Of a stretch of 56,072 nt of DNA, positions 12,909 to 30,240 are shown piece after piece. The translations under genes were made by a program, and so were the position numbers. The notes beneath the pieces were generated by a model that was given only the letters and a program-made list of their open reading frames with translations, was not told the origin of the DNA and did no database searches. The first letter of the stretch is position 1, and each line of letters opens with the position of its first letter. Source of the DNA: Oscillospiraceae bacterium (GTDB taxonomy: Bacteria; Bacillota; Clostridia; Oscillospirales; CAG-272). The stretch lies in assembly GCA_015064525.1 (NCBI GenBank), contig SVSC01000001.1, positions 1-56,072 of the forward strand. Reading direction: 5' to 3'.

Positions 12909-14135
12909 TTAAAGCACGGAATTTGCCGTTTCCTCCAGTGCGATCTCCGACCAGCGCCAAAGCCGACGGGGATCCCTTTGCACGGTGGTGATATCCTTGA
13001 GAAGAAGCTCCAGCCCCAGCCCGTTGGCATTTGCCGCCGCGAGCGTTCTGCGGAGATCCTTGCGGATCACCTCCTCGTCAAAGGAGGAGCCGCCCAGGTA
13101 GGTGGGGGTTGGCTTGTTGGACATAATGTATTTCTTGGGCAGCGTGGCGGCAAAGCGCTCTCTGTCGCTCCAGGGACTGCAGGAAATTTTGCGGATGTTG
13201 GGCATACGGTCGATGATGTGGAGACGGTCGTCCAGTCGCTCGCAGCATCCATAGTAAATCGATCCGAAATAGGCGAAAATTCTCGACATATAAGGCACCT
13301 CGAACTCCTCGTTCACCGCAGGGGACACCGATGTAAAGAGCTGCGCCATGCTGTATGTCCAACCGTTTTGGGTGGTGTTCTCAAGGGCGGGAGTGGTGCT
13401 GAAGGTGTGGGAGCAGTGGCAGATATTGCTGACCGTATCGTAAATTTTCAGTTGGTTGAGCTGCTCCAGCTGGGCAATGAAGGCGTTGGTGTAGCGCTCC
13501 ATAATGGCGTGGATCAGCTCGGGACGGTCGATCAGATCGAAATAGCAGTTTTCCACGCCCTTCCAGAAGGTGATAAAGTCCCAAAGCCCCGCGTGAACCA
13601 TTACGCCCGCCCACTTCACGGGGGCGATGCCTCGGAAAAGCTCCTCTGCCACCGTCATGATCTCCTCCTCGGCGTGGGGATTCAGGGAAATCTCGGGGGT
13701 TTTGATCTTTTCCACGTCGGTAAGCTCCTCCAGCTGATCCCGAAAGAGGTGCGTTTGAACCTCGCCGCCCCGATGCTCCAGCGGTTGCGTTTTCAACCCA
13801 AATCCCGTGTTCACAATGGGGCGCTTGAGAAGAATATAGGGGTTCAGCACCATGTCTGCGGGCAGATGCTCCCATTGGTAGAGATATCTGCGAAGAGCGC
13901 ATTCCAGCCAACGAAAATAAGGATTTTCCACGGTGCAGATCAGGGCGGGGTCGCTTTCCAGCTCCTCCCACGGAATCTGGTGAATGGTGATCATGGGCTT
14001 TTGCATGTTTCCGCTGTTGAGAGCCTGCCACAAAGTTCTTTTTTTGTTGTTTTCTTCGGAAAGCGCGTAGCCCATATAGCGGCTTGCCAGCGCGCGCAGG
14101 GTGTTCTTTTCCGCCGCGGTCAGCATGATGTTCAT
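12909..14135 (-). CDS. Conserved hypothetical protein. Possibly a URO-D/MetE-like metal-dependent TIM-barrel; that guess is weak.
   Basis: 408 aa with balanced composition. RBS aaggaga lies before the ATG. Cys/His-rich motifs (ICHCSH, YYGCCERLD, ISCSPW). The overlapping + ORF 12654..14174 is a G/V/L/H-rich shadow. Confidence 0.7.
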   Translation of the reverse strand: MNIMLTAAEKNTLRALASRYMGYALSEENNKKRTLWQALNSGNMQKPMITIHQIPWEELESDPALICTVENPYFRWLECALRRYLYQWEHLPADMVLNPYILLKRPIVNTGFGLKTQPLEHRGGEVQTHLFRDQLEELTDVEKIKTPEISLNPHAEEEIMTVAEELFRGIAPVKWAGVMVHAGLWDFITFWKGVENCYFDLIDRPELIHAIMERYTNAFIAQLEQLNQLKIYDTVSNICHCSHTFSTTPALENTTQNGWTYSMAQLFTSVSPAVNEEFEVPYMSRIFAYFGSIYYGCCERLDDRLHIIDRMPNIRKISCSPWSDRERFAATLPKKYIMSNKPTPTYLGGSSFDEEVIRKDLRRTLAAANANGLGLELLLKDITTVQRDPRRLWRWSEIALEETANSVL

Positions 14136-14386
14136 TGGAATCTCCTTTTCTGTATGTTTGTGCTGTTATTATAGCATCTTTGCGCAAACCTGTCAAGTCT
14201 CGCCTGAATTTTTCGGGTATTTTTGTTGGCATGGGAGGAGGGAAGACGACCAAATGAGGGGTGTTGAAAATACATCGCCCGAGTGGTTGAAAAATAGGAT
14301 GCAAGCGAAATAAAGCCGTTTTTTTGACAAATGTTGAGAATGCGAAAAAGTTTCCTCCGAAAAGTCGCTTTTTTATTATGATATTG

Positions 14387-14415
14387 TTGACAAAATTTGC
14401 GCGCTGTGATATAAT
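14387..14415 (+). promoter_or_regulatory. Sigma-A type promoter of the three-gene lipoprotein operon
   Basis: TTGACA (14387..14392), 17-nt spacer, TGaTATAAT (TATAAT at 14410..14415), about 85 nt upstream of the ATG at 14500. Confidence 0.7.
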
Positions 14416-14499
14416 TACCATGAATGAGTGTCTTTGCCGTCGGGAATCCGCGTAAGCGACGCGCGGCGAAGAAAAAGTGTGAAACAACAGGAGACGAAT

Positions 14500-17073
14500 A
14501 TGAAACAGATCAAAATATTGGCGTGGATCCTTGTGCTTTTGCTGGCGACAGCCTGCCTGTGGGCTTGCGATGACGTTGGAGAGGAACCCTCGGAGAACAA
14601 CGATCCCCCCTCGGGCAACGTTCAGAACCCCGTTGGAAACGGTGAGATCATGATCACCTATTATCCCGACGCGGGTCAGGCGGCTGTAACCGTTCGGGTA
14701 ACGGGCGGCTTTACGCTGAGCCCCATCCCCACCAAGGCGGGGCATGAGTTTTTGGGGCTGTTCGACGCGCCCGCGGGCGGTAGCTGTATCGTCAATGCCA
14801 ACGGGGAGCTAACGGTCACCCTTGCCAAGTCGGTCACCCTTTACGCCCAATGGAAAACCAAGACCTACAAGCTGATCTTCGATCCTGCCGAGGGCGAGCT
14901 GAGTCGCAAGGAGCAAACGGTGCTGATGGGCGGCGCGGTGGTTGCCCTGCCCGTGCCCGAAAGAGAGGGCTTCGATTTTGTTGGCTGGCAGGATCAGCGC
15001 GGCAACATGATCTCGGAGGGATCCAAGGTGTTGGACGCATGGAAAACCTTCACCCCCGAAAGCTATTCCCTGGTGAATGATTGCGCTAGGCTGACCGCTG
15101 TGTACACTCGCCGCCAGATCACCGTCACGCTGGATTACCGCGACGGCAGCTACAAGGCGGGAACGCTGACCCTCAACTACGGTGATGTCCTCACCGCCTC
15201 CTCTCTTCCCGTGGAGGATAACGGCACTCGTCGGATCGTGGCGTGGTCGATCTTTGCCAACGGAACCGTTCCCTATGCGGATGACGCGGTGGAGGAGAGC
15301 TTCACTCTTTACGCGGTCTGGAAAAATTATCAAACCGTGATGATGGACGATGGCATGGGCAATCAAACCAAGGCGTACGTTTATGAGGGCGAGCGCTTCG
15401 ACCTGAACACCTACAACGGTGTGGTGCGCCCCGGCTACCGTGTGGAGGGCTGGTATTCCAACCAAGGTCTCACGGGCTCCCCCGTTACCCATCTTTCCTA
15501 CGGTATGGCGCAAACGGTTTTCTACGCCAAGTGGACGCCCACCGTGTACACCCTGACCTTTGACGCGGTAAGCACGGGAAAGACGATTCAGCCGATCACG
15601 TATTCCTACGGCAGCTTTGTGCAGCTGGAGAGCCTCTATCGGGAGGGCTACACCTTCAACGGTTGGTGCGTCACGCCCGATTGCTCGGATCCCCCCATGA
15701 CCGCCGTAACGGCGGAGTTCTTCGGGGATTACACCCTCTACGCCAAGTTTACTCCCGATAGCTACACCGTGAAGCTGAATCCCGGAAAGGGAACCGTGAG
15801 CCGCGAGGAGGCGCAGGTTTCCTACGAAAGTCACTTTATTCTTCCCATCCCCACCCGCGCGGGCGCTTCCTTTGTGGGATGGTACTATCTGGAGGACGGA
15901 GTTGAGGTGCTTTGTACCGACGAATTGGGTCAGTCCACCAAGATCTACACCTTCATGGAGGGCAAAACCCTCTATGCCCGTTGGAAGACCGTAACGCTTA
16001 CCGTTTACTACGATTCCAACGGCGGCACCGAGGTGGCGGCGCAGACCTACGGCTACGGCGACCCGCTGAAATTCCCCGCGCCTCCCACCAAAACCAATCT
16101 TTATTTCATGGGCTGGTATCACGGCGATCTTTCAGAGGCGTATTTGCAGGATTCCGAGGTGAACAGCAATCTCACTCTCTATGCCAAGTGGGGAGACGTT
16201 GACCGCGGGGAGGTTTACGGAAAGTGCAATTACGAGAGCATTTTGGATACTGCCACCGAGTATAACGGAAATTACTACAAGATCTTCAACCTCACCTGTA
16301 CCTGGGAGCAGGCAAGGGCATACTGCGAGGCGCTGGGCGGACATCTGGTAACCATCACCTCCATCGGTGAGGATGCCGTTTGCGGGCAGATGTACCGCGC
16401 CAACAACGTGACCACCTGCTATATCGGCGCTACCGACAAGGATGCCGAGGGCGTTTGGACCTGGGTGACCGGTGAGAAGTGGGGCTACAACAACTTCAAC
16501 ACGGGCGAGCCCAACGGCGGAACGGGCAGTAACTTCGGCGCCTACTACATCATCAACGGGCAGACCGCCTACTGGGACGATACCTCGGGCGAGCATATTT
16601 TCATGTGCGAATGGGAAGAGGGCGACGTGGCGTGGGTCCGCGAGAACGTGGGCTTCCTCAAGAGCGCCGACGAGCTTTACAACGAGGCGATCTACTACGC
16701 GGGACACGTTTATCAGGTCTATAATATTTCGGACTACGATTACGCCAAGCAGAAGCAATACTGCGAGAAGCTGGGCGGTCGGCTTGCAACCATTGAAAGC
16801 GCGAGAGAAAACACCGTTGTGGGCTTCCTTTTGAAAACGGCGGGAATTGCCAACGCGATATTTGGCGCAACCGACCGATATCAGGAGGGAACGTGGTGTT
16901 GGACCGACGGCAGAGTGATCGGCTACAGCAATTGGAACAGCGGTGAGCCCAACAACAGCAGCAATGCCGAGCATTACGCGGAGGTTTACGCCACCGGCGG
17001 ATGGAACGACGTGCAGGGCTCGGGCAGAGCGGCATTCGTTTGCGAATGGGACTACTGGGAGCTTAAACAATAA
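14500..17073 (+). CDS. Surface lipoprotein: about 7 Listeria-Bacteroides (InlB B-repeat/Flg_new) modules plus two C-terminal C-type lectin domains
   Basis: ATG at 14500 after aggag. Signal peptide MKQIKILAWILVLLLATACLWAC. Repeats of about 70 aa end in TLYA[QKR]W. There are two CTLD signatures (TWEQARAYCEALGGHLVTI..EPN..WDD..CEWE and YAKQKQYCEKLGGRLATI..EPN..WND..CEWD). Confidence 0.9.
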   Translation: MKQIKILAWILVLLLATACLWACDDVGEEPSENNDPPSGNVQNPVGNGEIMITYYPDAGQAAVTVRVTGGFTLSPIPTKAGHEFLGLFDAPAGGSCIVNANGELTVTLAKSVTLYAQWKTKTYKLIFDPAEGELSRKEQTVLMGGAVVALPVPEREGFDFVGWQDQRGNMISEGSKVLDAWKTFTPESYSLVNDCARLTAVYTRRQITVTLDYRDGSYKAGTLTLNYGDVLTASSLPVEDNGTRRIVAWSIFANGTVPYADDAVEESFTLYAVWKNYQTVMMDDGMGNQTKAYVYEGERFDLNTYNGVVRPGYRVEGWYSNQGLTGSPVTHLSYGMAQTVFYAKWTPTVYTLTFDAVSTGKTIQPITYSYGSFVQLESLYREGYTFNGWCVTPDCSDPPMTAVTAEFFGDYTLYAKFTPDSYTVKLNPGKGTVSREEAQVSYESHFILPIPTRAGASFVGWYYLEDGVEVLCTDELGQSTKIYTFMEGKTLYARWKTVTLTVYYDSNGGTEVAAQTYGYGDPLKFPAPPTKTNLYFMGWYHGDLSEAYLQDSEVNSNLTLYAKWGDVDRGEVYGKCNYESILDTATEYNGNYYKIFNLTCTWEQARAYCEALGGHLVTITSIGEDAVCGQMYRANNVTTCYIGATDKDAEGVWTWVTGEKWGYNNFNTGEPNGGTGSNFGAYYIINGQTAYWDDTSGEHIFMCEWEEGDVAWVRENVGFLKSADELYNEAIYYAGHVYQVYNISDYDYAKQKQYCEKLGGRLATIESARENTVVGFLLKTAGIANAIFGATDRYQEGTWCWTDGRVIGYSNWNSGEPNNSSNAEHYAEVYATGGWNDVQGSGRAAFVCEWDYWELKQ

Positions 17074-17118
17074 GACAGACCGAACGAGAGATCGAATCAA
17101 GTCAGGAGGAACTTTATC

Positions 17119-20100
17119 TTGAAAAAACGTATTTTATGGATCACGGCGATGCTGCTGGTTCTGTTGCTTACTCTCGGACTCACCGCTTGCGATGATGATG
17201 AGGGCGGTAGCGGGGGCGACGGCAACGGTCCGATCAACGATCCGTCCTACAACGATGGTGTTGGCTCGCAGCCGATTACCGTTACCTATTTCACCGAGGC
17301 GGGAGGCGCTGCCCTCACCGCAACGGTAACCGACGGGCGCTTCACGCTGTCGCCGATCCCCACCAAGGAGGGCTATGTTTTCCTGGGGCTCTTTGACAGT
17401 CCCACGGGAGGCAGCTGTATTGTGGATGCTTACGGCGGCAGTCAGGTGACCTTTACCAAGTCGGTCACACTCTATGCCCAGTGGTCGGCAAAGAGCTACA
17501 CCGTGCTGCTCGATCCCGCGGGCGGAAGCATGAGCGGGTCGGATACCATGACGGTTACCTACGGCTCCTATATGCCCATGCTTCCCGTTGTGGAAAAGCC
17601 GGGCTTCGAGTTTGTGGGCTGGACCGATAACGTACACGGTCTTTGCTCCAACAAGGAAAACGTGCTTTCCGAGTTTTCCACCTTCAACAGCCTGAATTAC
17701 TTCATCAACAACGATTCGGTCACGCTTTACGCCACGTTTAAGGAGAAGAAGCTCACCGTTACCTTTGACTACAACGACGGTAGCTATCAGACCGATTCCT
17801 TTTCCGTGAAGTACGGCGACACGGTGGGCGCGGATCGTTACCCGCAAATGGACACGGGCAGCCGCGTGATCACGGGATGGTCGCTGAACCGCAACGATAT
17901 GGTTGCTCATTCGGGCCCCATTACCTCGGATCTCACTCTCTACGCCATTTGGAAGGACTATAAAACCTTCACGCTCCATGCGGGCAACGGCGATCAGCCC
18001 ACGCAGATCAAGGTGTTCCGCAACGAGTTCCATAATCTGGAGGCTCCTCAATGGAACGGCTACGAGTTCGACGGTTGGTACACCTCCACGCTGTTCTCGG
18101 GCGTTCCCGTGACGACCGTGGGCTATGGCTCCGCCAATTCGGAGCTGTACGCCAAGTGGATTCCCATCGACTACACCCTGCACCTGCAGGTGGGCGACGG
18201 AACCAGTCTCCCCGATATGTCCTATAACGTGAAGGACACGCTGGAGCTTCCCACGGCAACCAGACAGTATTGCACCTTTATCGGTTGGTGCCTGAGAGAG
18301 GATCTCTCCGATACTCCCTTTACCACTCTTCCCGCAGGCTACACGGGGGAATTGACCCTTTACGCCAAGTTCGCGGGTGAGGACAGAACGGTGATTCCCG
18401 ATGCCTGCGGCGGCAGTCTGGCGCAGAAGCAGGTAACCGTGGAATACGGCAACTTCTATCAGCTTCCCGTTCCCTCCAAGGAGGGCTACCTGTTCGTTGG
18501 CTGGTTCGCGGGCAATGACGAGGACGCGCTTCGCCTCACCGATGAGAACGGTAAGTCTCTCTCCGCCTTCAATTACGCCGAGGAAAGCACCACGGTGTAC
18601 GCCAAGTACTCCAAAAAGTACTACGTTCGCGTGGAAATCAACCTTCCCGCGGGAGGTAGCGTGGAGGTGAAGGAGCATTACGCCAACGGAGGAACGGTTG
18701 CTCCCAAGCTCACCCTCAACACGGGCTATATTTTTGAGGGCTACTACGTTGATAACGAAAAGATCTCCGACGATCCCAACTATACCTTCCTGATGGAGGG
18801 CATGGACGTGACGCTGGAGGTGCGCTTCAAGGCGAAGGAATACACCTTTACTCTGAATTCCGACGGCGGCTTCTGCCAGCAAGGCTCCGCTTCGGTGGTT
18901 CACGGCGAGAGCTATCTGCTGCCCGTTGCGTGGAAGCAGGGCTATCTGTTCAGCGGCTGGTCCTATAACGGTCAGCTGATCACCGATGAAACCGGCGCGT
19001 CGCTGGAAAGCTGGTCCCGCGAGGTTGCGGGCTCCACGCAGCTCAAGGCGGTCTTCATTGTGGATCCCCAGGGCGAATCCTTCATTGTGGTGAAGGATAA
19101 GGAAACCTTCCTCACCATGCTTCAGTTCCCCGACCGTGTCTACAGCCTTGTGGCGGACATCGACCTTTCGGGCGTTACCTGGAATCCCGTTGCCTTCAAG
19201 GGACAGCTCTACGGCAACAATTTCACCATTAAAAACCTCACCGTCACCTCCAACGCGCAGAACGTGGGTCTGTTCACCGTTCTCACGGGAACCGTGAGAG
19301 ATCTGAACTTCGAGAACGTGACGGTGAAGTCCGAGGGCTACAACGGCAATGCCTACGTTGGCGTGGTTTGCGGTACCCTGCAGGGCGGTAAGATCGAAAA
19401 CGTGAAGGTGCTTTCGGGCAGCGTTTCCGCAGGTGTATCTCACGTTGGCGGTATCGCGGGCTACGTTCTCACCAACAGCACCGTGAACGGCTGTGTGAAC
19501 CACGCCACCGTTACGGGCGCCGCCTCGGAGAGCTCGGGCGCAACCGGAGGTATCGTGGGTCATATTCCCGCTAACGCCGCCGTTACCCTAACCAACTGTG
19601 AGAACCACGGTGCCATTACGGGAACCTGGCGCACGGGCGGTATTGTGGGCGCGCTTTATGAGAACATCAAAATTTACAACGTGCTGAACACGGGCGCCAT
19701 CGTTGGTTCCAACAACGAAACGGGCGGTATCGTGGGCTCCTTCCAAACCTCCCATGCGGGAACCTTCGATCTCAACTGGAAGGCTGTGAACCGAGGCGCG
19801 GTTACGGGCAACAACAGCACGGGCGGTCTGATCGGATACGCAAAATATAACTTCGGCGGCTACGCCACCCTCTATTTCAACGATTCTCTCAACGAGGGAA
19901 CCGTTGTGGGAAACCAGTACGTTGGCGGTATCGTTGGTTACGGCTATTATAACTCCACCAACAACGATCTGGTGATCACCGTTTCGGGGCAAAAGAATCT
20001 GGGCAACGTGACGGGTAAGAACCACGTTGGCGGTATCTACGGCTACGTTTACTCCGATAACTACCTTTCGGTTCTGAAGGGAAGCTCCTCCTCCGCCAAG

Positions 20101-23100
20101 ATTTCCGGTGACTACTACATCGGCGGCATCATCGGTAAGGCGGATAACCTCTACGTGGACTCCTGCTCCAACAAGGGCAGTGAGATCATTGTAACGGGTA
20201 GCTACGTCAACAACAACACCTTCCAGACCTGGGTGGGCGGCTACGTTGGTTACGGTGCCTTTGTTTCCAACTGTCGCAACGAATGCGCCATCTCGGTTGC
20301 GGGCGAGGGCAAATTCGTTGGCGGTATTGCGGGGTATGTGAATCGCGGTGTTTCCAACTGCGAGAACCTTGGAGCCATCAATGCGCCCAAGTGCGATGCG
20401 GTTGGCGGCGTTGTGGGCGGCTCCTACGGCAGCGCCGTGCTGACACAGCAGAACCTCACCAATAAAGCAGACGTCACCGGTAAAACATGGGTTGGCGGTG
20501 TTTACGGCTATCTGGATGAAAACACCAGCGGCAATCCCAATCACGTGGTCACCGACCTTCGCAACGAGGGTAACGTGACCGGTGTGGAATGCGTTGGCGG
20601 TATTTTGGGCTCCTTCTACGGGCAATCCTCCAACGGCAACGTTCTCATGTCTCTCTCGAATTGGCACAGCGTCGGTAACGTCACCGGAGACATCCGAGTG
20701 GGTGGCGTGGTTGGTAAAGCATATGGCGATTATCAGCTCTCCCGCCTCACCAACGCCACGGCAAAGGGCGTGATCACGGGTCGCTACTACGTTGGCGGTA
20801 TTGTTGGTATGTGCGAGAACATCGTTCTCGACACCTGCTCCAACGAGGGCACAAGCTTTGTGATCACGGGAAGCTATCTGGACGGCACCGTTTACCGCTC
20901 CTTCGTTGGCGGTATCGCGGGCTATAGCTTCAGCATTCTCAATTCCACCAATCACGCGGATATCACCGTGGATTATGATGGCAGAAACGTGGCGGGTATT
21001 GTTGGTCATGGCTACGGCGTTCTGCAGAACTGCACCAATCTCGGCAACATCAATGCGCCCAAGTGTGATTACGTTGGCGGCATCACGGGTAATGTTACCA
21101 CCGGTATTGCCGAGGGACACCATCACCTGGAAAACAAGGGAAGCGTTGCGGCGAGAAGCTACGTTGGCGGTATCTTCGGTCGCTTTGAAAACGCGAACTC
21201 CGGTAATAACACACAAGCTGTTGAGCATTTGAACAGCGAGGGCAACGTTTCGGGCGAGCTCTACGTTGGCGGTATTGTGGGTCACATCTACTATAATTCC
21301 TCCAACGGCTCCAACCGCATGAGCGCAACCGACTGGAGCTGTGAGGGTGACGTGACGGGTAACAATCATATTGGCGGTCTCATTGGTTTTGGTGAAACCG
21401 ACCATGCGGAATCCATCCTCACGGAATCCACCTATTCGGGTAAGGTTTCCGCAAACTACATTCTCGGCGGCATTGCGGGTAAGCTGCTTTCCGTTGTGCT
21501 GGACAGCTGCTCCGTTGAGGAGGGCAGCGTGCTGAACGTTACCGGCAACTGGCTGGACGGCTCCACCTACCGTATCTACGCGGGCGGTATCGCGGGTCAA
21601 GGCTATAGTATCTTTCATTGCAAGAACAGCATTGCCATCACAATCACCACCGAGGGCGACCACGTTGGCGGCATTGCGGGCTACACCTACGGTGTGATCG
21701 AAAATTGCGAAAACACCGCGGAGATCCATGCGCCCAAGTGTCAGTACGTTGGCGGTATCGTTGGTCGGGCATATTCCAACGTGAACAGCTCGGTGAACTC
21801 CTACAGCAAGCTCACCAACAGCGGTAAGATCACGGGTCTGAACTACGTTGGCGGCGTTGCGGGCTATTTTGAAAGTCATTGTTATTACGGCAGTACACAG
21901 AATATCACGGATCTTACCAACAGCGGTGAGATTACGGGTGCTTTGTACGTTGGCGGTGTTGTGGGCAGTCTCTACGATAACTCGTCGAACAGCACGCTCG
22001 TCATGCTGGCGAGCGGCTGGAAGAACGAGGCGAACGTAACGGGTACCGGCTACGTTGGCGGTCTCATCGGAACCGCCTCCACCGATGTGAACACCTCCAA
22101 GCTTTCCGAATCCTCCTCCTCGGGAGCGATTAAGGCGGCATACCGCGTTGGCGGTTTGGTTGGCAGCATGACGCTGCTCACGCTGGACACCTGCTCCAAC
22201 GAGGGAACCACCGTAACGGCAACCGGCTTTGAGAATTCCGATTCCTTCGGAAACAATGCCTACGTTGGCGGCTACGCTGGCTACGGCTACGGCTTTATCA
22301 ATTGCCACAATGCGTCGAGCATCACCCTTTCCCACGCGGGCAACTGCGTTGGCGGTATCGTGGGCTATGCCTACGGTAGCCTGGAGAACTGCTCCAACGA
22401 GGGCGAGATCAACGCTCCCAAGGGTACCTTTGTTGGCGGCGTTGTGGGCAGAAGCTATTCGGGCGACAATTCTTTCCTTCCTTCTTATAAAGAGCTTTCC
22501 AACAGCGGCAAGATCACGGGTAAAGACTACGTTGGCGGTGTGCTGGGAAGCGCGGAGGCCGAATGCTATTACGGCGGCACGCAGATTTACCGCGCGCTTT
22601 CCAACACGGGGCTTATCCTTGGCGAAAGTCAGGTTGGCGGCGTGGTTGGAAATATCTATCTGAATTCCAACAACAGCGTGGTGAAGATGGATGCCACCGA
22701 TTGGAGCAATGTCTCCAACGTAACGGGCAACAACCGCGTTGGTGGTCTGATCGGCGACGTTTACACCGATTCGGTGGATTCCAAGCTGTCGCAGTCCACA
22801 TCCATCGGTAACATCTCCGCCGACTACTATCTGGGCGGTCTGGTGGGCTCCGCCGAGTATCTGACGCTGGAAGCCTGCTACAACGCGGGAACCAGGGTCA
22901 ATGTTACGGGCTACCTGCTGGAGAACTCGGTTTACTACACCTATGCGGGCGGCTTTGCGGGCAAGGGATACCGCTTCATTGACTGTGTGAACACGGTGGA
23001 GATCAGCGTTGACCAAAAGGGCTCCTACGTTGGCGGTATCGCGGGCTACGTTTCGGCATCCTCCGCAGGCGCGTCCTCCGGATGCAAGAATACGGCGAAG

Positions 23101-26100
23101 GTAACCGCAAAGAACTGTGACTACGTTGGCGGTCTCTACGGCTACTTTGCCACCAACACCTCCTCGAGTATTTCCAATTTCACCAACGAGGGCGACGTTT
23201 TGGGTAAAACCTTTGTTGGCGGTCTGTTCGGCTACCATTATACCTATGGTGGCGGCGCCATCACCGTAACCCTCACCGATCTCACCAATAGCGGAAGCGT
23301 TGAGGCAAAGGCAGATACCGCGGGCGGCATCGTCGGATTCTATTCGGGCGATTCCTCCAACAATAACTGCACGCTCAACGGAACCAACTGGAAGAACACG
23401 GGAGACGTGAAGGTGGAGGGTCATCGCGCGGGCGGTCTCCTGGGCTACGGCTGGACCGACCACAACGCCTCCAAGATTCAGAATTCCTCCTCCGCGGGTG
23501 AAATTTCCGCTGAGTATTACGTTGGCGGTCTGGCAGGATACCTTTCCAATATTGAATTGAACAGTTGCTCCAACAAGGGAACAACCATCAAGGTTACGGG
23601 TTATCTGCTGGATAATTCGGTTTACTACACCTATGCGGGCGGCTTTGCGGGCTACGGCTACCGCTTTACCTCCTGCGAGAACAACGCAACCGTCAGCGTC
23701 AGCCAAAAGGGCGCGAACGTGGGCGGTATCGCGGGCTGGGCAAACGGCTATGCCAACAGCTGCGCAAACCTGGCGGATATCACCGCTCCCAACTGCGAGA
23801 ACGTGGGCGGTATCTACGGTCAGTATAACTACGGTGGCTCCATGACCATGACCGATCTTTCCAACGAGGGTGACGTCACCGGAAAAACCAAGGTTGGCGG
23901 TATCTACGGCTACTACTACACCTACGGCAGCGGCGCCATCACCATCAATCTCAACACGCTGGAGAACGAGGGAGCCATTACCGCGAGCGGCGAGTCTGCG
24001 GGCGGTATCGCGGGCTACTTTAACGGCGACTCCTCCAACAACAACTGCACCTTCACGGGAACCGATTGGGAGAACTCGGGCGACGTTACGGGCGACATTC
24101 GGGTTGGCGGTCTGATCGGTCACCTATGGGACGATTACACCGGCTCCAAGCTGCAGGAATGCTCCTCCTCGGGAACCATCACGGGTAGAGCATACGTTGG
24201 CGGTCTGGCAGGCTGCGCTTGGTACACCACCTTCTTTGCCTGCGATAACATTGGCACCAAGATTGTGGTAACGGGCAACCTGCTGGAGAACTCCGTGTAT
24301 TATCTCTACGTTGGCGGCTACGCGGGCAGAGGCTATGCCTTTACCGATTGCGTGAACTACGCGGATCTTTCCGCCGCGAGCAAGGGCTACTACGTTGGCG
24401 GTATCGCGGGCTACTGCGATGGCAGCCTCTCGGGCTGCGAGAACTATGGCGGAATCACCGCAGCCAACGCCACCTACGTTGGCGGCCTGGTGGGCAGAGT
24501 GGAATGCTACGCCAATATCAGCGTAACCGAATCCTTGAATGAGGGCGACATTATCGGTAAGGATCACGTTGGCGGTTTGTTCGGAGAAGTTTATATGTAT
24601 CTGGCAAGCTATCGCGAGGTCACCTTCTCCAATCTGCAAAATAAGGGTGACGTGACTGCCTCGGGCGATTATGCCGGTGGTATCGCGGGCTACCACAACA
24701 CCATTTCTACCAATAATAACTGCCTCTTCCGCGGCACCGGCTTGAAGAACAGCGGCAACGTGACGTCAACCGGCGGCTACGTTGGCGGTCTGTTCGGATA
24801 TCTGGTGACCGACTACGCCGAATCCAAGCTGGAGGAAAGCTCCTCCTCGGGTGCGGTAAAGGGCGCTCACACCGTTGGCGGTCTTGTTGGTTGGGCAACT
24901 GCCGTGAAGCTTTTGAACTGCTCCAACGAGGGAGCCTCCGTGGAGGCCACAGGCAGCCTTCTGAAAAATGACGTACACTACGCTCAGGTTGGCGGCTACG
25001 TTGGCTATAGCGACGGTAACACAACCATCACGGGCTGCGACAACGCCGTGGATATTATCTACAGCGGTAACGGCATTTACGTTGGCGGAATCGCGGGCTA
25101 CTGCACCAACAGCATCACCGATTTCACCAACGTTGGTGAAATCAACGCGCCTCGGGCAGCCCACGTTGGCGGTATCGTGGGAAGACTGGCTTGTGACAGC
25201 ACCGTCACCGTCACCGCAACCGTTAACGAGGGCAAGATCACGGGTAAGGATCACGTTGGCGGCCTGTTCGGAGAGGTTTATATGTATCTGGCAAGCTATC
25301 GCGAGGTCACCTTCTCCAATCTGCAAAATAAGGGTGACGTGATTGCCTCGGGCGATTATGTGGGCGGTATCGCGGGCTACCACAACACCATTTCCACCAA
25401 TAATAACTGCCTCTTCCGCGGCACCGGCTTGAAGAACAGCGGCGATGTGACGTCAACCGGCGGCTACGTTGGCGGTCTGTTCGGATATTTGGCTACCGAC
25501 TACGCCGAATCCAAGCTGGAGGAAAGCTCCTCCTCGGGCGCTGTGAAGGGATTGCACACGGTTGGCGGCATCGCGGGTTGGGTTACCGCCGTGAAGCTTT
25601 TGAACTGTTCCAATGAGGGAGCCACTGTGGAAGCTACGGGAAGCTTCCTGCAGAATGATATTTATTATGCACAGGTAGGCGGCTACGTTGGCTACAGCGA
25701 CGGTCTTGCTCCCATCACGGGTTGCAACAATGCCGTGAATATTACCTACAGCGGTAACGGTATTTACGTTGGCGGTATTGCGGGCTATAGCTCCTACACC
25801 ATCACCGATTGCACCAACAGCGGTACTATCACCGCTTCGAAGTCCGATTATGTTGGCGGTATCGTTGGTAGAATGGGATGCTCCACGGGAGCGCCCGATT
25901 TGAAAAACTGTACCAACAGCGGCAAGATCACGGGTAACGCTCAGGTTGGCGGTCTTGTGGGAGAGTTCTATTTCAACTATTCCTCCGAGCGTCATTCCTA
26001 TTTCAGTGATCTCACCAACAGCGGCGCGGTTCTTGCCTCGGGCGAGAACGCGGGCGGTATCGTTGGAAACTACTATTTCAACTCCACCAACAGCGTCGCA

Positions 26101-26979
26101 ACCCTCCATGCCAACAGCTTGAAGAATACCGCAAGCATAACAGGCACGCGTGGGGTAGGAGGCATTTTCGGAAAGCTTTATACCGATACCACTAACTCTA
26201 AAATGGAGGCATGCTCCTCCTCGGGTGCTGTGAAGGGCGTGAGCGCCGTTGGCGGCTTGGTTGGATATGCGGAAAACCTGCAGATTGTCAATTGCTCCAA
26301 TGATGGAGCAACCGTTACAGCTACCGGTGCTTACACAGAAAACGGGGCGAATGACGCTCAGGTTGGCGGCTACGTGGGCTACTTCAACGGAACGGTTTCC
26401 GGATGCGTTAACAAAGCGATCGTTTCCTACAGCGGTGACGGTAAATACGTTGGCGGTATTGCGGGACATTGCGTTTCCACCATTACCGATTGTGAGAACC
26501 AAGGCAATATCACCGCGTCCAATGCCTCCTATGTTGGCGGCATTGTGGGTAGACTGGGAGGCTCCTCCAACTGTCCCGACATGAAAAATTGCTCCAACAG
26601 TGGCACTGTGCAGGGCAAGGAACGTGTGGGGGGATTGATGGGTGACTACTATGTGAGCGCGGGCAATAATCACTGCACCACCTATTTCGCCTCTCTCACC
26701 AACACGGGTAATGTGGTTGCCTCGGGTGATTACGTTGGCGGCATCATCGGATATTGCTACGGAGCTGCCAATGGCGGTTACACCGACACATTCGTTGCCA
26801 CCGATCTCAAAAATACGGGCAATGTGCGGGGAGGCGATTTTGTGGGTGGTTTGATCGGAGAGTTTTCATCGGACACCTCCGCATCCTCCATCACAGGCTA
26901 TTCCTCCACGGGAACCATCGTTGCAACGGGCACCAAATCCGAGCTGGTTGCGCAAAGTCAAAATTTGACCTTGAAATAA
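17119..26979 (+). CDS. Giant (3286 aa) surface lipoprotein: about 8 Flg_new modules followed by a GLUG-motif beta-solenoid
   Basis: TTG start 9 nt after aggagga. Signal peptide with lipobox LGLTAC|DDD. N-terminal repeats resemble those of the upstream gene. From about aa 640 there are hundreds of [VI]GG[IL][VA]G[YR] coils (GLUG-like). An uninterrupted 9.86-kb frame. Confidence 0.92.
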   Translation: MKKRILWITAMLLVLLLTLGLTACDDDEGGSGGDGNGPINDPSYNDGVGSQPITVTYFTEAGGAALTATVTDGRFTLSPIPTKEGYVFLGLFDSPTGGSCIVDAYGGSQVTFTKSVTLYAQWSAKSYTVLLDPAGGSMSGSDTMTVTYGSYMPMLPVVEKPGFEFVGWTDNVHGLCSNKENVLSEFSTFNSLNYFINNDSVTLYATFKEKKLTVTFDYNDGSYQTDSFSVKYGDTVGADRYPQMDTGSRVITGWSLNRNDMVAHSGPITSDLTLYAIWKDYKTFTLHAGNGDQPTQIKVFRNEFHNLEAPQWNGYEFDGWYTSTLFSGVPVTTVGYGSANSELYAKWIPIDYTLHLQVGDGTSLPDMSYNVKDTLELPTATRQYCTFIGWCLREDLSDTPFTTLPAGYTGELTLYAKFAGEDRTVIPDACGGSLAQKQVTVEYGNFYQLPVPSKEGYLFVGWFAGNDEDALRLTDENGKSLSAFNYAEESTTVYAKYSKKYYVRVEINLPAGGSVEVKEHYANGGTVAPKLTLNTGYIFEGYYVDNEKISDDPNYTFLMEGMDVTLEVRFKAKEYTFTLNSDGGFCQQGSASVVHGESYLLPVAWKQGYLFSGWSYNGQLITDETGASLESWSREVAGSTQLKAVFIVDPQGESFIVVKDKETFLTMLQFPDRVYSLVADIDLSGVTWNPVAFKGQLYGNNFTIKNLTVTSNAQNVGLFTVLTGTVRDLNFENVTVKSEGYNGNAYVGVVCGTLQGGKIENVKVLSGSVSAGVSHVGGIAGYVLTNSTVNGCVNHATVTGAASESSGATGGIVGHIPANAAVTLTNCENHGAITGTWRTGGIVGALYENIKIYNVLNTGAIVGSNNETGGIVGSFQTSHAGTFDLNWKAVNRGAVTGNNSTGGLIGYAKYNFGGYATLYFNDSLNEGTVVGNQYVGGIVGYGYYNSTNNDLVITVSGQKNLGNVTGKNHVGGIYGYVYSDNYLSVLKGSSSSAKISGDYYIGGIIGKADNLYVDSCSNKGSEIIVTGSYVNNNTFQTWVGGYVGYGAFVSNCRNECAISVAGEGKFVGGIAGYVNRGVSNCENLGAINAPKCDAVGGVVGGSYGSAVLTQQNLTNKADVTGKTWVGGVYGYLDENTSGNPNHVVTDLRNEGNVTGVECVGGILGSFYGQSSNGNVLMSLSNWHSVGNVTGDIRVGGVVGKAYGDYQLSRLTNATAKGVITGRYYVGGIVGMCENIVLDTCSNEGTSFVITGSYLDGTVYRSFVGGIAGYSFSILNSTNHADITVDYDGRNVAGIVGHGYGVLQNCTNLGNINAPKCDYVGGITGNVTTGIAEGHHHLENKGSVAARSYVGGIFGRFENANSGNNTQAVEHLNSEGNVSGELYVGGIVGHIYYNSSNGSNRMSATDWSCEGDVTGNNHIGGLIGFGETDHAESILTESTYSGKVSANYILGGIAGKLLSVVLDSCSVEEGSVLNVTGNWLDGSTYRIYAGGIAGQGYSIFHCKNSIAITITTEGDHVGGIAGYTYGVIENCENTAEIHAPKCQYVGGIVGRAYSNVNSSVNSYSKLTNSGKITGLNYVGGVAGYFESHCYYGSTQNITDLTNSGEITGALYVGGVVGSLYDNSSNSTLVMLASGWKNEANVTGTGYVGGLIGTASTDVNTSKLSESSSSGAIKAAYRVGGLVGSMTLLTLDTCSNEGTTVTATGFENSDSFGNNAYVGGYAGYGYGFINCHNASSITLSHAGNCVGGIVGYAYGSLENCSNEGEINAPKGTFVGGVVGRSYSGDNSFLPSYKELSNSGKITGKDYVGGVLGSAEAECYYGGTQIYRALSNTGLILGESQVGGVVGNIYLNSNNSVVKMDATDWSNVSNVTGNNRVGGLIGDVYTDSVDSKLSQSTSIGNISADYYLGGLVGSAEYLTLEACYNAGTRVNVTGYLLENSVYYTYAGGFAGKGYRFIDCVNTVEISVDQKGSYVGGIAGYVSASSAGASSGCKNTAKVTAKNCDYVGGLYGYFATNTSSSISNFTNEGDVLGKTFVGGLFGYHYTYGGGAITVTLTDLTNSGSVEAKADTAGGIVGFYSGDSSNNNCTLNGTNWKNTGDVKVEGHRAGGLLGYGWTDHNASKIQNSSSAGEISAEYYVGGLAGYLSNIELNSCSNKGTTIKVTGYLLDNSVYYTYAGGFAGYGYRFTSCENNATVSVSQKGANVGGIAGWANGYANSCANLADITAPNCENVGGIYGQYNYGGSMTMTDLSNEGDVTGKTKVGGIYGYYYTYGSGAITINLNTLENEGAITASGESAGGIAGYFNGDSSNNNCTFTGTDWENSGDVTGDIRVGGLIGHLWDDYTGSKLQECSSSGTITGRAYVGGLAGCAWYTTFFACDNIGTKIVVTGNLLENSVYYLYVGGYAGRGYAFTDCVNYADLSAASKGYYVGGIAGYCDGSLSGCENYGGITAANATYVGGLVGRVECYANISVTESLNEGDIIGKDHVGGLFGEVYMYLASYREVTFSNLQNKGDVTASGDYAGGIAGYHNTISTNNNCLFRGTGLKNSGNVTSTGGYVGGLFGYLVTDYAESKLEESSSSGAVKGAHTVGGLVGWATAVKLLNCSNEGASVEATGSLLKNDVHYAQVGGYVGYSDGNTTITGCDNAVDIIYSGNGIYVGGIAGYCTNSITDFTNVGEINAPRAAHVGGIVGRLACDSTVTVTATVNEGKITGKDHVGGLFGEVYMYLASYREVTFSNLQNKGDVIASGDYVGGIAGYHNTISTNNNCLFRGTGLKNSGDVTSTGGYVGGLFGYLATDYAESKLEESSSSGAVKGLHTVGGIAGWVTAVKLLNCSNEGATVEATGSFLQNDIYYAQVGGYVGYSDGLAPITGCNNAVNITYSGNGIYVGGIAGYSSYTITDCTNSGTITASKSDYVGGIVGRMGCSTGAPDLKNCTNSGKITGNAQVGGLVGEFYFNYSSERHSYFSDLTNSGAVLASGENAGGIVGNYYFNSTNSVATLHANSLKNTASITGTRGVGGIFGKLYTDTTNSKMEACSSSGAVKGVSAVGGLVGYAENLQIVNCSNDGATVTATGAYTENGANDAQVGGYVGYFNGTVSGCVNKAIVSYSGDGKYVGGIAGHCVSTITDCENQGNITASNASYVGGIVGRLGGSSNCPDMKNCSNSGTVQGKERVGGLMGDYYVSAGNNHCTTYFASLTNTGNVVASGDYVGGIIGYCYGAANGGYTDTFVATDLKNTGNVRGGDFVGGLIGEFSSDTSASSITGYSSTGTIVATGTKSELVAQSQNLTLK
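20158..26976 (+). repeat. Ten in-frame tandem super-modules (period 672-690 bp, about 230 aa) within the giant gene
   Basis: Module starts, marked by the recurring [DN]xC[SY]N[EKA]G motif, fall at 20158, 20830, 21512, 22186, 22870, 23560, 24235, 24913, 25600 and 26287. Conserved Cys positions recur in each module (CxN.G, NC.N.G.I.AP.C.YVGG). Confidence 0.85.
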
Positions 26980-27006: not shown

Positions 27007-30000
27007 ATGAAAAAAAGATTTCTGATCCTGACCCTTGTTCTGCTTCTTTCGGTGCTGGCGTTTTCCGCCTGCGATAAGGAAGCAGGCGGCAGCGGCGCTC
27101 TGGGTGGCTTGCTCGGCGGCGCTCCCGTCACCCCCCAGAACCTGCGCTACGATGGCACCCTCATCACGTGGAATGCCTCGGAGGGCGCGGAGGCGTACCT
27201 CGTTCAGATCAACGATGGCGAGGAGTGGACGGTAACCGTTCCTCAGTATGCCTACGACGCTGCGGGCGGTCAATTCACCTTTAAGGTGACTGCCGTTGCC
27301 GATGCGAACGCCAAGAAGCCCAAGAAATCCGAGCCCGCAACCATGAACTTCAAGCCTCTGGGCAACATTGGGGAATTGCGCGTGGCAGACGACGGAAGCG
27401 TTTCCTGGGACGTTGTGAGCATGGCAACCGCCTACGTTGTGAAGATCGACGGCGTGCAGACCGCCCACGTGCTTCCCACTCCCACCTTCACCGAGGTTCC
27501 CGTGGGCAGACACAGCATTCAGATCCGCCCCGTGATCAACGGCGACGATTCCTACTACTCCAAGTGGAGCAACCCCGTCAGCTTCGAGGTTCTGCAGCCC
27601 GTTTCCAAGGATACCATCACCTATGATCCCAGCGGCTACATCAAGTGGGGCGCTGTGGGCGCGCAGTTCTATGACGTTTACGTGAACGGTAATCTGATTG
27701 CGGATAACTGCAACAGCACGCAGGTGAGCTATGATCCCCTGAACGCCAACTTTGAGGTTACCATTCAGGCGATCGGTAACCATTCCTCCACCTACGACGC
27801 AAAAATAAGTGATGCCAAGAAGTTCGTCTTCCTGGATTCGGTTACCAACATTGTGGTTGAGGACGGTATTTTGAAGTGGGATCCCGTGAACGGCGCCAAC
27901 GGCTACCGTTTACGCCTCAACGGCACCGAGCTGAACGAAACCTTCACCACCTGCGAATTCAACCGTCTCACCGCCAACACCAACACTCGCGTGGAGATCC
28001 GTGCCATCAGCAATGACGACACCTATTTCTCCTCCTGGTCGGCTGAAAAGAACGTGCTTCTCCTGCCCGCTCCTACGCTCCGTTGGAACGAGTATGAGCT
28101 GGACGGTCAGGCAAACAGCAACATTTATTGGGATACCGTTGCCCAAGCGGCAGGCTATGCGATCCGCATCACCCGTCCCAACGGTGTAACCGAGGTTCTG
28201 ACCTACGGCGAGACCCAGAGATTCTTCCAAGAGGCTTATCTGGAAAGCGGAACCTACATTGTTGAGGCAAAGGCGCTGGCAAACACCACCACCAGCAACG
28301 TGTACGATTCCATTTATTCCACCCCCATCAAGGTCATCCGTTTGGATGCTCCCAAGCCCGCCAAGAGCAACCCCCTCACCAGTAATCCCAACGATCTGGA
28401 CGACGGATTTGTTGTAACCTTCGAAAAGGTTGCGGGCGCCACCTCCTATAAGCTCTTCCAGGATAACGTTCTCAACCAAACCATTTCCTCTACTCAGGGA
28501 CAGTTCTCCGTGAAGAATTTCTCGGATCCCGGCAGAATTGAGGAGCAGACCTACAACTTTAAGATCCAGAGCGTGGGCTCGGTGCAAACCGTGAACGGTC
28601 AGATCGTTGCAACCCTCAGCTCTCTCAGCGCGAATTCCTATGCCTTTGAGGTTACCGTGCTGGCAACACCCGCACAGCCCACCATCAGCGGTTATCAGTA
28701 TTCCTATGGCTCTGTGAGCCGTGCCTTCGGCTACGTTGTGGACGTTGGCGGTCAGAGCTTTGTGAGCGGCGAAACCTTCTATAATTTGGATATGCTGGCG
28801 GCAGGCAACTATTCTGTCAGCGTTTGCGCTCAGGGTAACGGCACCAACGTGCTGCCCTCCAACTACTCCGCGCCCATCACCGTTTACCGTTTGGATGCTC
28901 CCGCCAACGTGCGCATCGACACTACCGAGGCATCCGAGGGTATCCTCACCTTCGACGACGTGCTGTACGCGCAGAGCTACGAGGTTTTCTTCAACAACGA
29001 CGGTAACGCCCTTCCCGTAAGCTCCATTCAGAACATGAACCAGTATATCACCGAGCAGGGAACCACGGTTCATATGAAGAGCGTCGCTAACTACTACAAC
29101 TCCGACGGAACCATCTACTATATGTCCTCCCAGCCCGGCTCCACCACCAACTTCATCAAGCTGGCAAAGCCCACCTTCGGTGACGTTGCGTTTACCAACG
29201 ATAACCTGATCTGGAAGGCTCCCGGCAACGTGGATTCCTCGGTTTACACGCCCACCTATGAGGTTTATTACCCCAACGGCATGATCTACAACGGCGAGAA
29301 GAACGGAACCTCCTTCAGCCTTGCAACCCTGGAGGGCGGACAGTCCTATGAGTTCCAGGTGAAGGCGATCGGTAACGGAACCAAGTATATCAACTCCGAA
29401 AAGTCGATCACCGTGGCGATCTACAAGCTGGCAACTCCCAAGGTTGAGCGCGAGAACGGTAAGTACGTGTTCAAGCGCGTGACCAATGCCGTGAGCTACG
29501 CCGTTTACGTGGACGGTGAGCTGGTTGCCACCTATCAGCACAATTCCGACATCACCTCCTATGAGTACACGCCTCTCTTCAAGGAGCTGAAAACCTACAT
29601 GGTTGAGGTGGTTGCGATTGGTGACCAGGGCTACACCAGCATCAATTCCAACCCCTGCGTGATCGAGCAGGAGACCAAGCAGCTGCAGACTCCCGATTTC
29701 AAGCTGAGCTACAGCGAGGAGAGCTATAGCCCCTCGGGTCAGGTGATCGCAACCATCACCAAGGAATCCCCCTACGCGAAGGAATATGCCTACGATATCG
29801 GCGGCACCACCTACACCTCCGCGGCGCTTTCTCAGGGTAAAACCGTTAGCACCGCAGGTAAGATTACCGTGAGAGTGTACGCCATTGGCGGAAACTTTGA
29901 TGAGAACGGCGTTTACTACATTGATTCTCAGAGTCAGGGCGGAAACGATCGCTATTCCATCATCATTCTTGCGTCTCCCAACCCCTCCGACTTTAAGTTC

Positions 30001-30240
30001 TCCATGGACGGTTCGATTTCCTGGACTCCCATCAGCGGCACCAGCAAGTATCGCGTGACCATTGTGTGCGGAAACGTGAGCAAGACCGTTGAGGTGACCT
30101 CCACCACGTTGGATCTTCTCAACTATGAGGAGTTTGAGGACGTGAATATGAAGTCCGACCACATCGAGATCACGGTTCAAGCCATCGGAAACGGAATGAC
30201 TACCGTTACCTCTGAGGCTGCCACCGCGGTTTGGAACTAA
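27007..30240 (+). CDS. Surface lipoprotein composed of about 12 FN3/Ig-like modules
   Basis: 1077 aa. Signal peptide with lipobox LAFSAC|DK. Twelve units of about 85-95 aa each show the pattern P.n[LIV]....g.[IL].W..V.gA..Y.[VI]......, e.g. PQNLRYDGTLITWNASEGAEAYLVQING. Confidence 0.85.
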   Translation: MKKRFLILTLVLLLSVLAFSACDKEAGGSGALGGLLGGAPVTPQNLRYDGTLITWNASEGAEAYLVQINDGEEWTVTVPQYAYDAAGGQFTFKVTAVADANAKKPKKSEPATMNFKPLGNIGELRVADDGSVSWDVVSMATAYVVKIDGVQTAHVLPTPTFTEVPVGRHSIQIRPVINGDDSYYSKWSNPVSFEVLQPVSKDTITYDPSGYIKWGAVGAQFYDVYVNGNLIADNCNSTQVSYDPLNANFEVTIQAIGNHSSTYDAKISDAKKFVFLDSVTNIVVEDGILKWDPVNGANGYRLRLNGTELNETFTTCEFNRLTANTNTRVEIRAISNDDTYFSSWSAEKNVLLLPAPTLRWNEYELDGQANSNIYWDTVAQAAGYAIRITRPNGVTEVLTYGETQRFFQEAYLESGTYIVEAKALANTTTSNVYDSIYSTPIKVIRLDAPKPAKSNPLTSNPNDLDDGFVVTFEKVAGATSYKLFQDNVLNQTISSTQGQFSVKNFSDPGRIEEQTYNFKIQSVGSVQTVNGQIVATLSSLSANSYAFEVTVLATPAQPTISGYQYSYGSVSRAFGYVVDVGGQSFVSGETFYNLDMLAAGNYSVSVCAQGNGTNVLPSNYSAPITVYRLDAPANVRIDTTEASEGILTFDDVLYAQSYEVFFNNDGNALPVSSIQNMNQYITEQGTTVHMKSVANYYNSDGTIYYMSSQPGSTTNFIKLAKPTFGDVAFTNDNLIWKAPGNVDSSVYTPTYEVYYPNGMIYNGEKNGTSFSLATLEGGQSYEFQVKAIGNGTKYINSEKSITVAIYKLATPKVERENGKYVFKRVTNAVSYAVYVDGELVATYQHNSDITSYEYTPLFKELKTYMVEVVAIGDQGYTSINSNPCVIEQETKQLQTPDFKLSYSEESYSPSGQVIATITKESPYAKEYAYDIGGTTYTSAALSQGKTVSTAGKITVRVYAIGGNFDENGVYYIDSQSQGGNDRYSIIILASPNPSDFKFSMDGSISWTPISGTSKYRVTIVCGNVSKTVEVTSTTLDLLNYEEFEDVNMKSDHIEITVQAIGNGMTTVTSEAATAVWN

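Follow-up and report, generated by a model that had tools for sequence, protein, structure and literature searches.

The window analyzed here is a 56,072-nucleotide (nt) stretch of DNA from an Oscillospiraceae bacterium (CAG-272; assembly GCA_015064525.1, contig SVSC01000001.1) and carries on its plus strand a gene for a protein with two tandem C-type lectin domains (CTLDs) at its C-terminus. The open reading frame (ORF) spans 14428..17073 and the most plausible start, an ATG at 14500, yields an 857-amino-acid (aa) protein, P0001 (gene 14500..17073, +). Searches against Pfam matched Flg_new over six stretches (E 4e-48) and Lectin_C (PF00059) over two (E 1.1e-24), giving a lipoprotein-like layout of a Flg_new stalk followed by tandem CTLDs and bearing out the two C-type lectin domains claimed in a first-pass annotation of this DNA. 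The protein begins with a signal peptide carrying a lipobox cysteine, as read from the sequence (MKQIKILAWILVLLLATAC19LWAC23; 14500..14568, +), followed by an acidic low-complexity linker and a stalk of Listeria-Bacteroides (Flg_new/TIGR02543) repeats at residues ~51-565 (14650..16194, +; PF09479, PF18998 and NCBIfam TIGR02543). The same layout was found in the orthologue P0002. The lipobox, LLLATAC19LWAC23, is preceded by a basic N-terminus and a hydrophobic core, and by eye the lipidated cysteine would be C19 or C23. The genome to which the window belongs encodes Lgt (two matches, 2.5e-71) and the signal peptidase II LspA (4.1e-41). No Omp85/BamA was found in this genome, a metagenome-assembled genome (MAG) that is 82% complete, and within the limits of that completeness this fits a monoderm cell. 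We infer that P0001 is a lipid-modified, surface-located lipoprotein.

The Lectin_C matches scored 87.6 bits over the whole protein against a cut-off of 22.6, and both copies were also above the cut-off when the genome was searched in six frames (55.2 and 48.6 bits). Domain 1 covers residues 576-706 (16225..16617, +) and was delimited using Lectin_C, an alignment to SP-D and residues 6-135 of an AlphaFold2 (AF2) model. Domain 2 covers residues 717-857 (16648..17070, +) as judged from Lectin_C at 747-849, an alignment to collectin-11 and the AF2 model. The first-pass annotation had started the region at 16224, one base ahead of the frame, as 16225 is the first base of Cys576. Its motif codons were exact. 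The EPN triplet of domain 1 (GAGCCCAAC, E670-P671-N672, aligned with SP-D EPN 321-323) lies at 16507..16515 (+) and that of domain 2 (GAGCCCAAC, E816-P817-N818, aligned with collectin-11) at 16945..16953 (+). Domain 2 carries WND at 17002..17010 (+; TGGAACGAC, W835-N836-D837, collectin-11 alignment) and domain 1 carries WDD instead at 16573..16581 (+; W692-D693-D694, SP-D alignment). The core pattern described for both domains was confirmed in part. CE.LGG.L.TI and CEW are present in both, with the CEW codons beginning at 16606 (domain 1) and 17041 (domain 2), but TW..A is present in domain 1 only; the whole pattern TW..A...CE.LGG.L.TI fits domain 1 (CTWEQARAYCEALGGHLVTI) but not domain 2, which reads YDYAKQKQYCEKLGGRLATI. 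The W.G..D pattern fits neither domain (YIGATD and IFGATD). Cysteines of the outer C1-C4 disulfide, which would link alpha1 to beta5, are present in both domains at the conserved CE..GG and CEW positions (C609/C703 and C755/C848) and, as positions only, are at least 90% conserved in a 28-row alignment, A1.

The sugar site of domain 2 was assessed by alignment to solved structures. Collectin-11/CL-K1 (4yli, 9srk) was the best single-domain match to domain 2, with an E value of 1e-15 for 9srk_A using phmmer against PDB sequences. The two long loops are of equal length (EPNN-x5-E-x10-WND) and aligned without a gap over the domain 2 sequence W-N-S-G-EPNN-SSNAE-HYAEVYATGG-WND, so that E816, N818, E824, N836 and D837 fall in register at the five ligand positions of the sugar-site Ca2+. 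Their MBP-A counterparts are E185, N187, E193, N205 and D206. The loop glutamate E824 (16969..16971, +), the MBP-A E193 equivalent, aligned with the second Glu of the collectin-11 motif 'DEEDC'. By this register domain 2 is predicted to have a complete canonical Ca2+/sugar site and to conform to the five-ligand definition of an EPN-class mannose-type site. Binding would most likely be by direct Ca2+ coordination of sugars of the Man, GlcNAc, Glc or Fuc type, whose equatorial hydroxyls lie next to each other. Domain 2 differs from collectin-11 in having Tyr826 at a Cys position, which removes the inner disulfide, and His825 at the auxiliary-site Asp. It also differs in context, as P0001 has no collagen or neck trimerisation region and domain 2 is the tip of a bacterial lipoprotein.

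To model the fold, residues 571-857 were predicted with AF2 from alignment A1. The tandem model had a mean predicted local distance difference test score (pLDDT) of 94.3 and a predicted TM score (pTM) of 0.92, with pLDDT of 95-96 across the domain 2 site. Both domains are modelled with the CTLD double-loop alpha/beta fold, and a helix at residues 707-716 (16618..16647, +; model residues 137-146) packs the two as one unit, so that the tandem pair is predicted to be rigid. This inter-domain linker is 83% identical in P0002. Foldseek against the PDB returned 523 matches at E <= 0.001 and matched more than 500 CTLD chains with probability 1.00. Matches to collectin-11 and SP-D had a root mean square deviation (rmsd) of 1.0-1.9 Å over 115-117 columns. 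Single-domain matches included CL-K1 (4yli; rmsd 1.0-1.1 Å, 117 columns, 32% identity), CL-11 with L-fucose (9srk_A; target TM 0.88), SP-D with trimannose (4m18) and mannose receptor CRD4 with Man-alpha1-2Man (7juf). The CTLD fold expected by the first-pass annotation was thus recovered, as was the location of the EPN and WND motifs in the canonical long-loop Ca2+ site, in register with collectin-11 for domain 2 and with SP-D for domain 1. By profile, fold and loop both domains belong to Pfam Lectin_C and to the canonical CTLD class, in which a long loop lies between beta2 and beta3/4. When both domains were searched together, the top matches were multi-CTLD receptors. Endo180/uPARAP, the macrophage mannose receptor, DEC-205 and PLA2R lead the Foldseek and phmmer matches to the tandem because they too carry consecutive CTLDs, but their domains are oriented differently (rmsd ~17 Å over both domains, TM ~0.39) and P0001 is bacterial and has no CysR or FnII domain.

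The loop of domain 1 was best aligned to human SP-D (4m17, E 2.8e-8), and the SP-D and MBP-A/C structures (4m17/4m18, 1kwu, 1rdi) were the best matches to the loop half of this domain. EPN lies opposite SP-D E321-P-N323, W692-D693-D694 lies opposite W-N341-D342 and the Asp and Glu of the auxiliary-site motif 'TD...EG' are kept in both domains of P0001. Unlike SP-D, domain 1 has Ser677/Asn678 for E329, Phe679 for D330 and Asp693 for N341, a three-residue insertion before WDD, and a Cys628/Cys640 pair that may stand in for C2-C3. HMMER placed Asn678 against SP-D E329, Phe679 against D330 and Gly680 against C331. Ser677 is the likelier counterpart of the Glu, because close relatives read EPNGGTG-E-N where P0001 and P0002 read EPNGGTG-S-N. 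Ser677-Asn678 (16528..16533, +) occupy the positions of the loop Glu (MBP-A E193/SP-D E329) and the Asp that follows it, as judged from the HMMER alignment and the relatives. E670, N672 and D694 are kept and all of the replacing residues are still oxygen donors. The first-pass annotation had described the sugar-site motifs as intact. This stands for domain 2, with its full ligand set, but not for domain 1, where the change to WDD had been noticed and the missing loop Glu ligand had been overlooked.

The two changes of domain 1 were then counted in homologues, using all domains with [EQ]P[ND] and W[ND]D in a 120-protein set and in a genome set. In the 120-protein set the loop Glu was present in 179 WND domains and absent from 8, and present in 4 WDD domains and absent from 20 (Fisher p 6e-18). 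The genome set gave 62 and 1 for WND and 2 and 17 for WDD (Fisher p 2e-14); the counts in either set are not independent of kinship. WDD domains with no loop Glu occur in P0016, P0017, P0020, P0026, P0029, P0034, P0046, P0093 and P0103. This pattern resembles a compensatory shift of one carboxylate within the Ca2+ site, in domain 1 from the loop Glu to the WND Asn position, and would leave three acidic and two amide or hydroxyl ligands there. As the pairing recurs in prokaryotic homologues, domain 1 looks like a charge-relocated variant site rather than a decayed one. Ca2+ binding by this domain has probably survived, with a sugar site that is weaker or whose hydrogen bonds are arranged differently.

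Close relatives of P0001 were compared for architecture and site residues. P0002 shares 66% overall identity with P0001 as well as its architecture, and both sites match letter for letter; the P0002 gene was found on two ENA contigs with the same neighbours, followed by the same giant gene. The most conserved stretch between P0001 and P0002 is the domain 1 loop region (85%). P0018 (853 aa, from an NCBI MAG) likewise shares this architecture, with 43% identity over the tandem. Its domain 1 reads EPD/WID and its domain 2 reads QPD-E-WND, which is galactose-type. This pattern is the switch that would be expected for a changed sugar specificity, and the specificity of the head appears to switch between strains or species. 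The combination of Flg_new stalk, lipobox and tandem CTLD was shared only by P0002, P0018 and P0007 among the 120 best matches. In same-genus relatives with multiple CTLDs (L008 and L010 in genome G027, L009 and L011 in genome G037) the last CTLD always reads EPNN..E..WND and the preceding domains read EPS, EPG, WVD or EPN with other variants. These proteins seem to keep a conserved lectin at the terminal position and to diversify the domains before it.

The wider family was sampled by a protein search with the tandem region, which returned 415 matches, almost all of them from metagenomes or MAGs of Clostridia and other prokaryotes. Annotated matches are named by NCBI as 'lectin-like protein' or 'C-type lectin domain-containing protein', and fusion partners of the homologues include dockerin, cohesin, ricin-B, CBM-like, LRR, SLH, GH25, CHAP and M23 domains. 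Site residues were counted in 306 CTLDs from the best 120 proteins. The EPN position read EPN in 181, QPD in 39 and EPS in 17, and the WND position read WND in 218 and WDD in 38. Pro was kept in 288 of the domains, Trp in 299 and the final Asp (Asp206-equivalent) in 294, and the C2 column held Tyr in 138. These counts make retention of the motifs the norm of the prokaryotic family and not special to P0001, contrary to the rarity that the first-pass annotation had implied. Like P0001, most prokaryotic Lectin_C proteins lack the inner disulfide and the WIGL Trp. The family also frequently carries EPN or QPD with WND and uses a tandem-pair module with a conserved linker; P0001 differs in adding the Flg_new stalk and the lipobox.

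A pattern built from a six-sequence alignment was scanned against GTDB species-representative genomes, one for each species, and gave at least 482 confirmed relatives spread over many phyla. Clostridia from the guts of deer, buffalo, goat, yak and sheep are among them, as are Lachnospiraceae, Acutalibacteraceae, Oscillospiraceae and Ruminococcus, and the relatives extend to Verrucomicrobiota, Kiritimatiellae, Planctomycetota, Desulfobacterota, Bacteroidota, Gammaproteobacteria, Nitrospirae, Heliorestis and a Methanosarcinales archaeon MAG (L088). The 139 domains from 79 kept loci read EPN in 56 cases, QPD in 27, WND in 80 and WDD in 30. A profile search found the P0001 gene to be the only Lectin_C gene in its genome (2.18 Mb, 82% complete), and 8 of the 81 genomes of the genus and order carry a Lectin_C gene, which makes it an accessory gene that is patchy at close range. 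No Lectin_C was found in 14 well-known control genomes, and a search of the genome contigs with the whole of P0001 found no relative. The nearest genome matches are herbivore gut MAGs and suggest a gut habitat. As an observation apart, archaeal MAGs (L088, and P0025, P0033 and P0048 from Hodarchaeales and Methanofastidiosia) carry multi-copy Lectin_C domains with EPN/WND.

Canonical Ca2+-type C-type lectins are textbook modules of animal innate immunity. The searched literature yielded no experimental work on any prokaryotic C-type lectin of the canonical long-loop kind; the one match for 'bacterial C-type lectin', LecB, was rejected as it is not a CTLD. In two surveys of the bacterial lectins of human microbiomes, the only C-type lectins mentioned are host proteins. 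A review describes bacterial CTLDs as compact and without the long loop (PMC9630629), a description that does not hold for the prokaryotic Lectin_C family. The domains of P0001 share the superfold with compact CTLDs of the intimin/invasin type but have the full long loop with Ca2+ site residues. A variable protein of the diversity-generating retroelement (DGR) type, CLec, was also considered and rejected, on domain comparison only, because Lectin_C is over the cut-off and the Ca2+ site is intact, unlike the Mtd/TvpA-type folds. Our verdict is that P0001 is a real but ordinary member of a known, widespread and barely studied family. As motif retention is the rule in this family, P0001 alone is unsurprising; it is of value as a clear and well-modelled example of a broad prokaryotic family that keeps the sugar-site residues of animal lectins. 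It is also a convenient test case, as the head is a compact 287 aa with one canonical disulfide predicted per domain, canonical and variant sites stand side by side, and P0002 (same sites) and P0018 (QPD) provide a comparison set.

Three consecutive plus-strand ORFs begin with the lectin gene and are separated by gaps of 45 and 27 nt. Gene 2 (17119..26979, +) encodes a 3286-aa lipoprotein with the lipobox LTAC, a Flg_new stalk (Pfam E 7e-39) and a body of GLUG repeats (Glug, 3e-15). The stalks of genes 1 and 2 (14500-16209 and 17119-19200) are collinear paralogues, with 38% identity over 516 aa (E 2e-107). By sequence, then, the two products pair the same predicted anchor and stalk type with two different heads. 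Gene 3 (27007..30240, +) lies 27 nt past gene 2 and was listed from its spacing. Its 1077-aa product had no Pfam or NCBIfam match at E <= 0.001-0.01. The three genes form a putative operon, with gene 3 assigned to it from spacing only.

Taken with the domain evidence, this arrangement points to P0001 as a surface lipoprotein with a Ca2+-dependent glycan-binding tandem-CTLD head and a candidate adhesin, a reading that we consider likely as a whole. The lipid-modified N-terminal Cys would anchor P0001 on the outer face of the membrane of a monoderm Clostridia-type cell, and the ~seven Flg_new repeats would form a stalk with the rigid long-loop CTLD pair at its distal C-terminus, a bivalent lectin head carried out past the wall. 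The domains would work in the manner of collectin-type carbohydrate-recognition domains, domain 2 with a mannose-type Ca2+-dependent site and domain 1 with a variant or weaker one. The GLUG-solenoid lipoprotein on the same stalk, a third lipoprotein and P0001 could together make up a surface adhesion apparatus for gut glycans. Candidate ligands would be mannans and glucans of plants or fungi, mucin glycans that are fucosylated or carry GlcNAc, and surface glycans of other microbes. The glycan recognition proposed by the first-pass annotation is supported as far as computation allows.

A number of observations weigh against this reading. EPN is only a rough predictor of specificity, even among animal lectins. 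Neither domain has the inner C2-C3 disulfide, with Gly680 and Tyr826 at the C2 position and no Cys after W-x-D, and the WIGL Trp is absent from both (YIGA, IFGA), with the Gly and hydrophobic positions kept. At the auxiliary Ca2+ site (MBP-A D161, E165, N188 and D194) domain 2 keeps D792, E796 and N819 and has His825 in place of the Asp. Domain 1 keeps D646 and E650 and has Gly673 and Phe679 at the other two positions, and its primary site fails the five-ligand test through the replacement of the loop Glu (Ser677/Asn678) and of the WND Asn (Asp693). Its loop is also the lowest-confidence part of the model core, with pLDDT 85 over the first ten loop residues (model residues 101-110). Kinship was controlled for with a FastTree phylogeny of 211 domains from which the loop columns had been removed. 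The two traits changed state 14 and 17 times (14 for the WDD state) and only three independent pairs stood on supported branches; all three agreed, which gives a sign test p of 0.25. The covariation of WDD with the lack of the loop Glu is suggestive, not established, and with so few supported independent pairs the charge-relocated site is put forward here as a hypothesis.

These points about domain 1 are the substance of an alternative in which only domain 2 is a lectin and domain 1 is a decayed structural CTLD that serves as a spacer or support and binds neither Ca2+ nor sugar. The lack of the loop Glu and the Phe679 at the auxiliary-site Asp position would be explained by decay, as would the EPS, EPG and WVD of penultimate CTLDs in same-genus proteins whose last domain is always canonical, and the EPD/WID of P0018. 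We consider this alternative unlikely, as the loop that should have decayed is the best-conserved stretch between P0001 and P0002, EPN, the Trp and the final Asp are retained, and loss of the Glu is paired with the Asn to Asp change at WND in 20 of 24 and 17 of 19 WDD domains, with three carboxylates kept. The larger proposal that EPN, no loop Glu, a conserved x-Asn and WDD together mark out a prokaryotic C-type lectin site with a functional class of its own is likewise doubtful, and we offer it tentatively. If it were true, carboxylate and amide would have traded positions (Glu to Ser/Asn, Asn to Asp) on the second side of the Ca2+, mirroring the exchange of EPN for QPD on its first side. The trade would reverse the donor and acceptor pattern of hydrogen bonds towards the sugar and amount to a second 'letter' of the specificity code, and the tandem would recognise two different glycan epitopes that lie a fixed distance apart.

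Two further explanations concern the head as a whole. The CTLDs could be Ca2+-stabilised scaffolds for a non-carbohydrate ligand such as a protein, mineral or lipid, with the motifs kept for structural Ca2+. Zelensky and Gready reportedly noted in 2005 that most animal proteins with the CTLD fold are not lectins, and the predicted rigid tandem might offer a composite surface. Loss of EPN/WND is typical of animal CTLDs that are not lectins, but domain 2 and its orthologues keep the complete five-residue sugar/Ca2+ site. The switching between EPN and QPD in the family (181 against 39 domains, and QPD-E-WND in P0018) is the pattern expected for specificity change, and the dockerin, ricin-B, CBM-like, GH25 and CHAP fusions of homologues are typical of glycan-directed proteins; a scaffold role is accordingly improbable. 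That the closest solved structures are all animal proteins could point to eukaryotic contamination or an assembly chimera, to which we give next to no weight. The CTLDs share one ORF with Flg_new repeats and a bacterial lipobox, the neighbours are bacterial, with rnfB on one side, and GC content is even. An identical protein on an independent JGI contig, the 66% identical orthologue on its two ENA contigs and the prokaryotic relatives from the genome scan refute it. Glycan binding by the tandem head is the reading that we retain.

Minor features of the locus were also recorded. A candidate sigma-70-type promoter, TTGACA-17-TATAAT with an extended TG, precedes the lectin gene at 14387..14415 (+) and was identified from its 12/12 consensus match only. 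A second 12/12 TG promoter lies at 14168-14196 (-), back to back with the first and divergent from it, and faces a 408-aa gene at 12909..14135 (-) whose product has no Pfam family. A gene on the strand opposite P0001 was considered and rejected, as the minus-strand ORFs 16132..17100 and 14809..16122 are without any Pfam family. Domain 1 carries an extra Cys pair, AVC628...TTC640 (16375-16413), which is conserved in domain 1 of P0002 and P0009-P0017, and C628/C640 may form an alternative second disulfide that replaces the missing C2-C3 pair.

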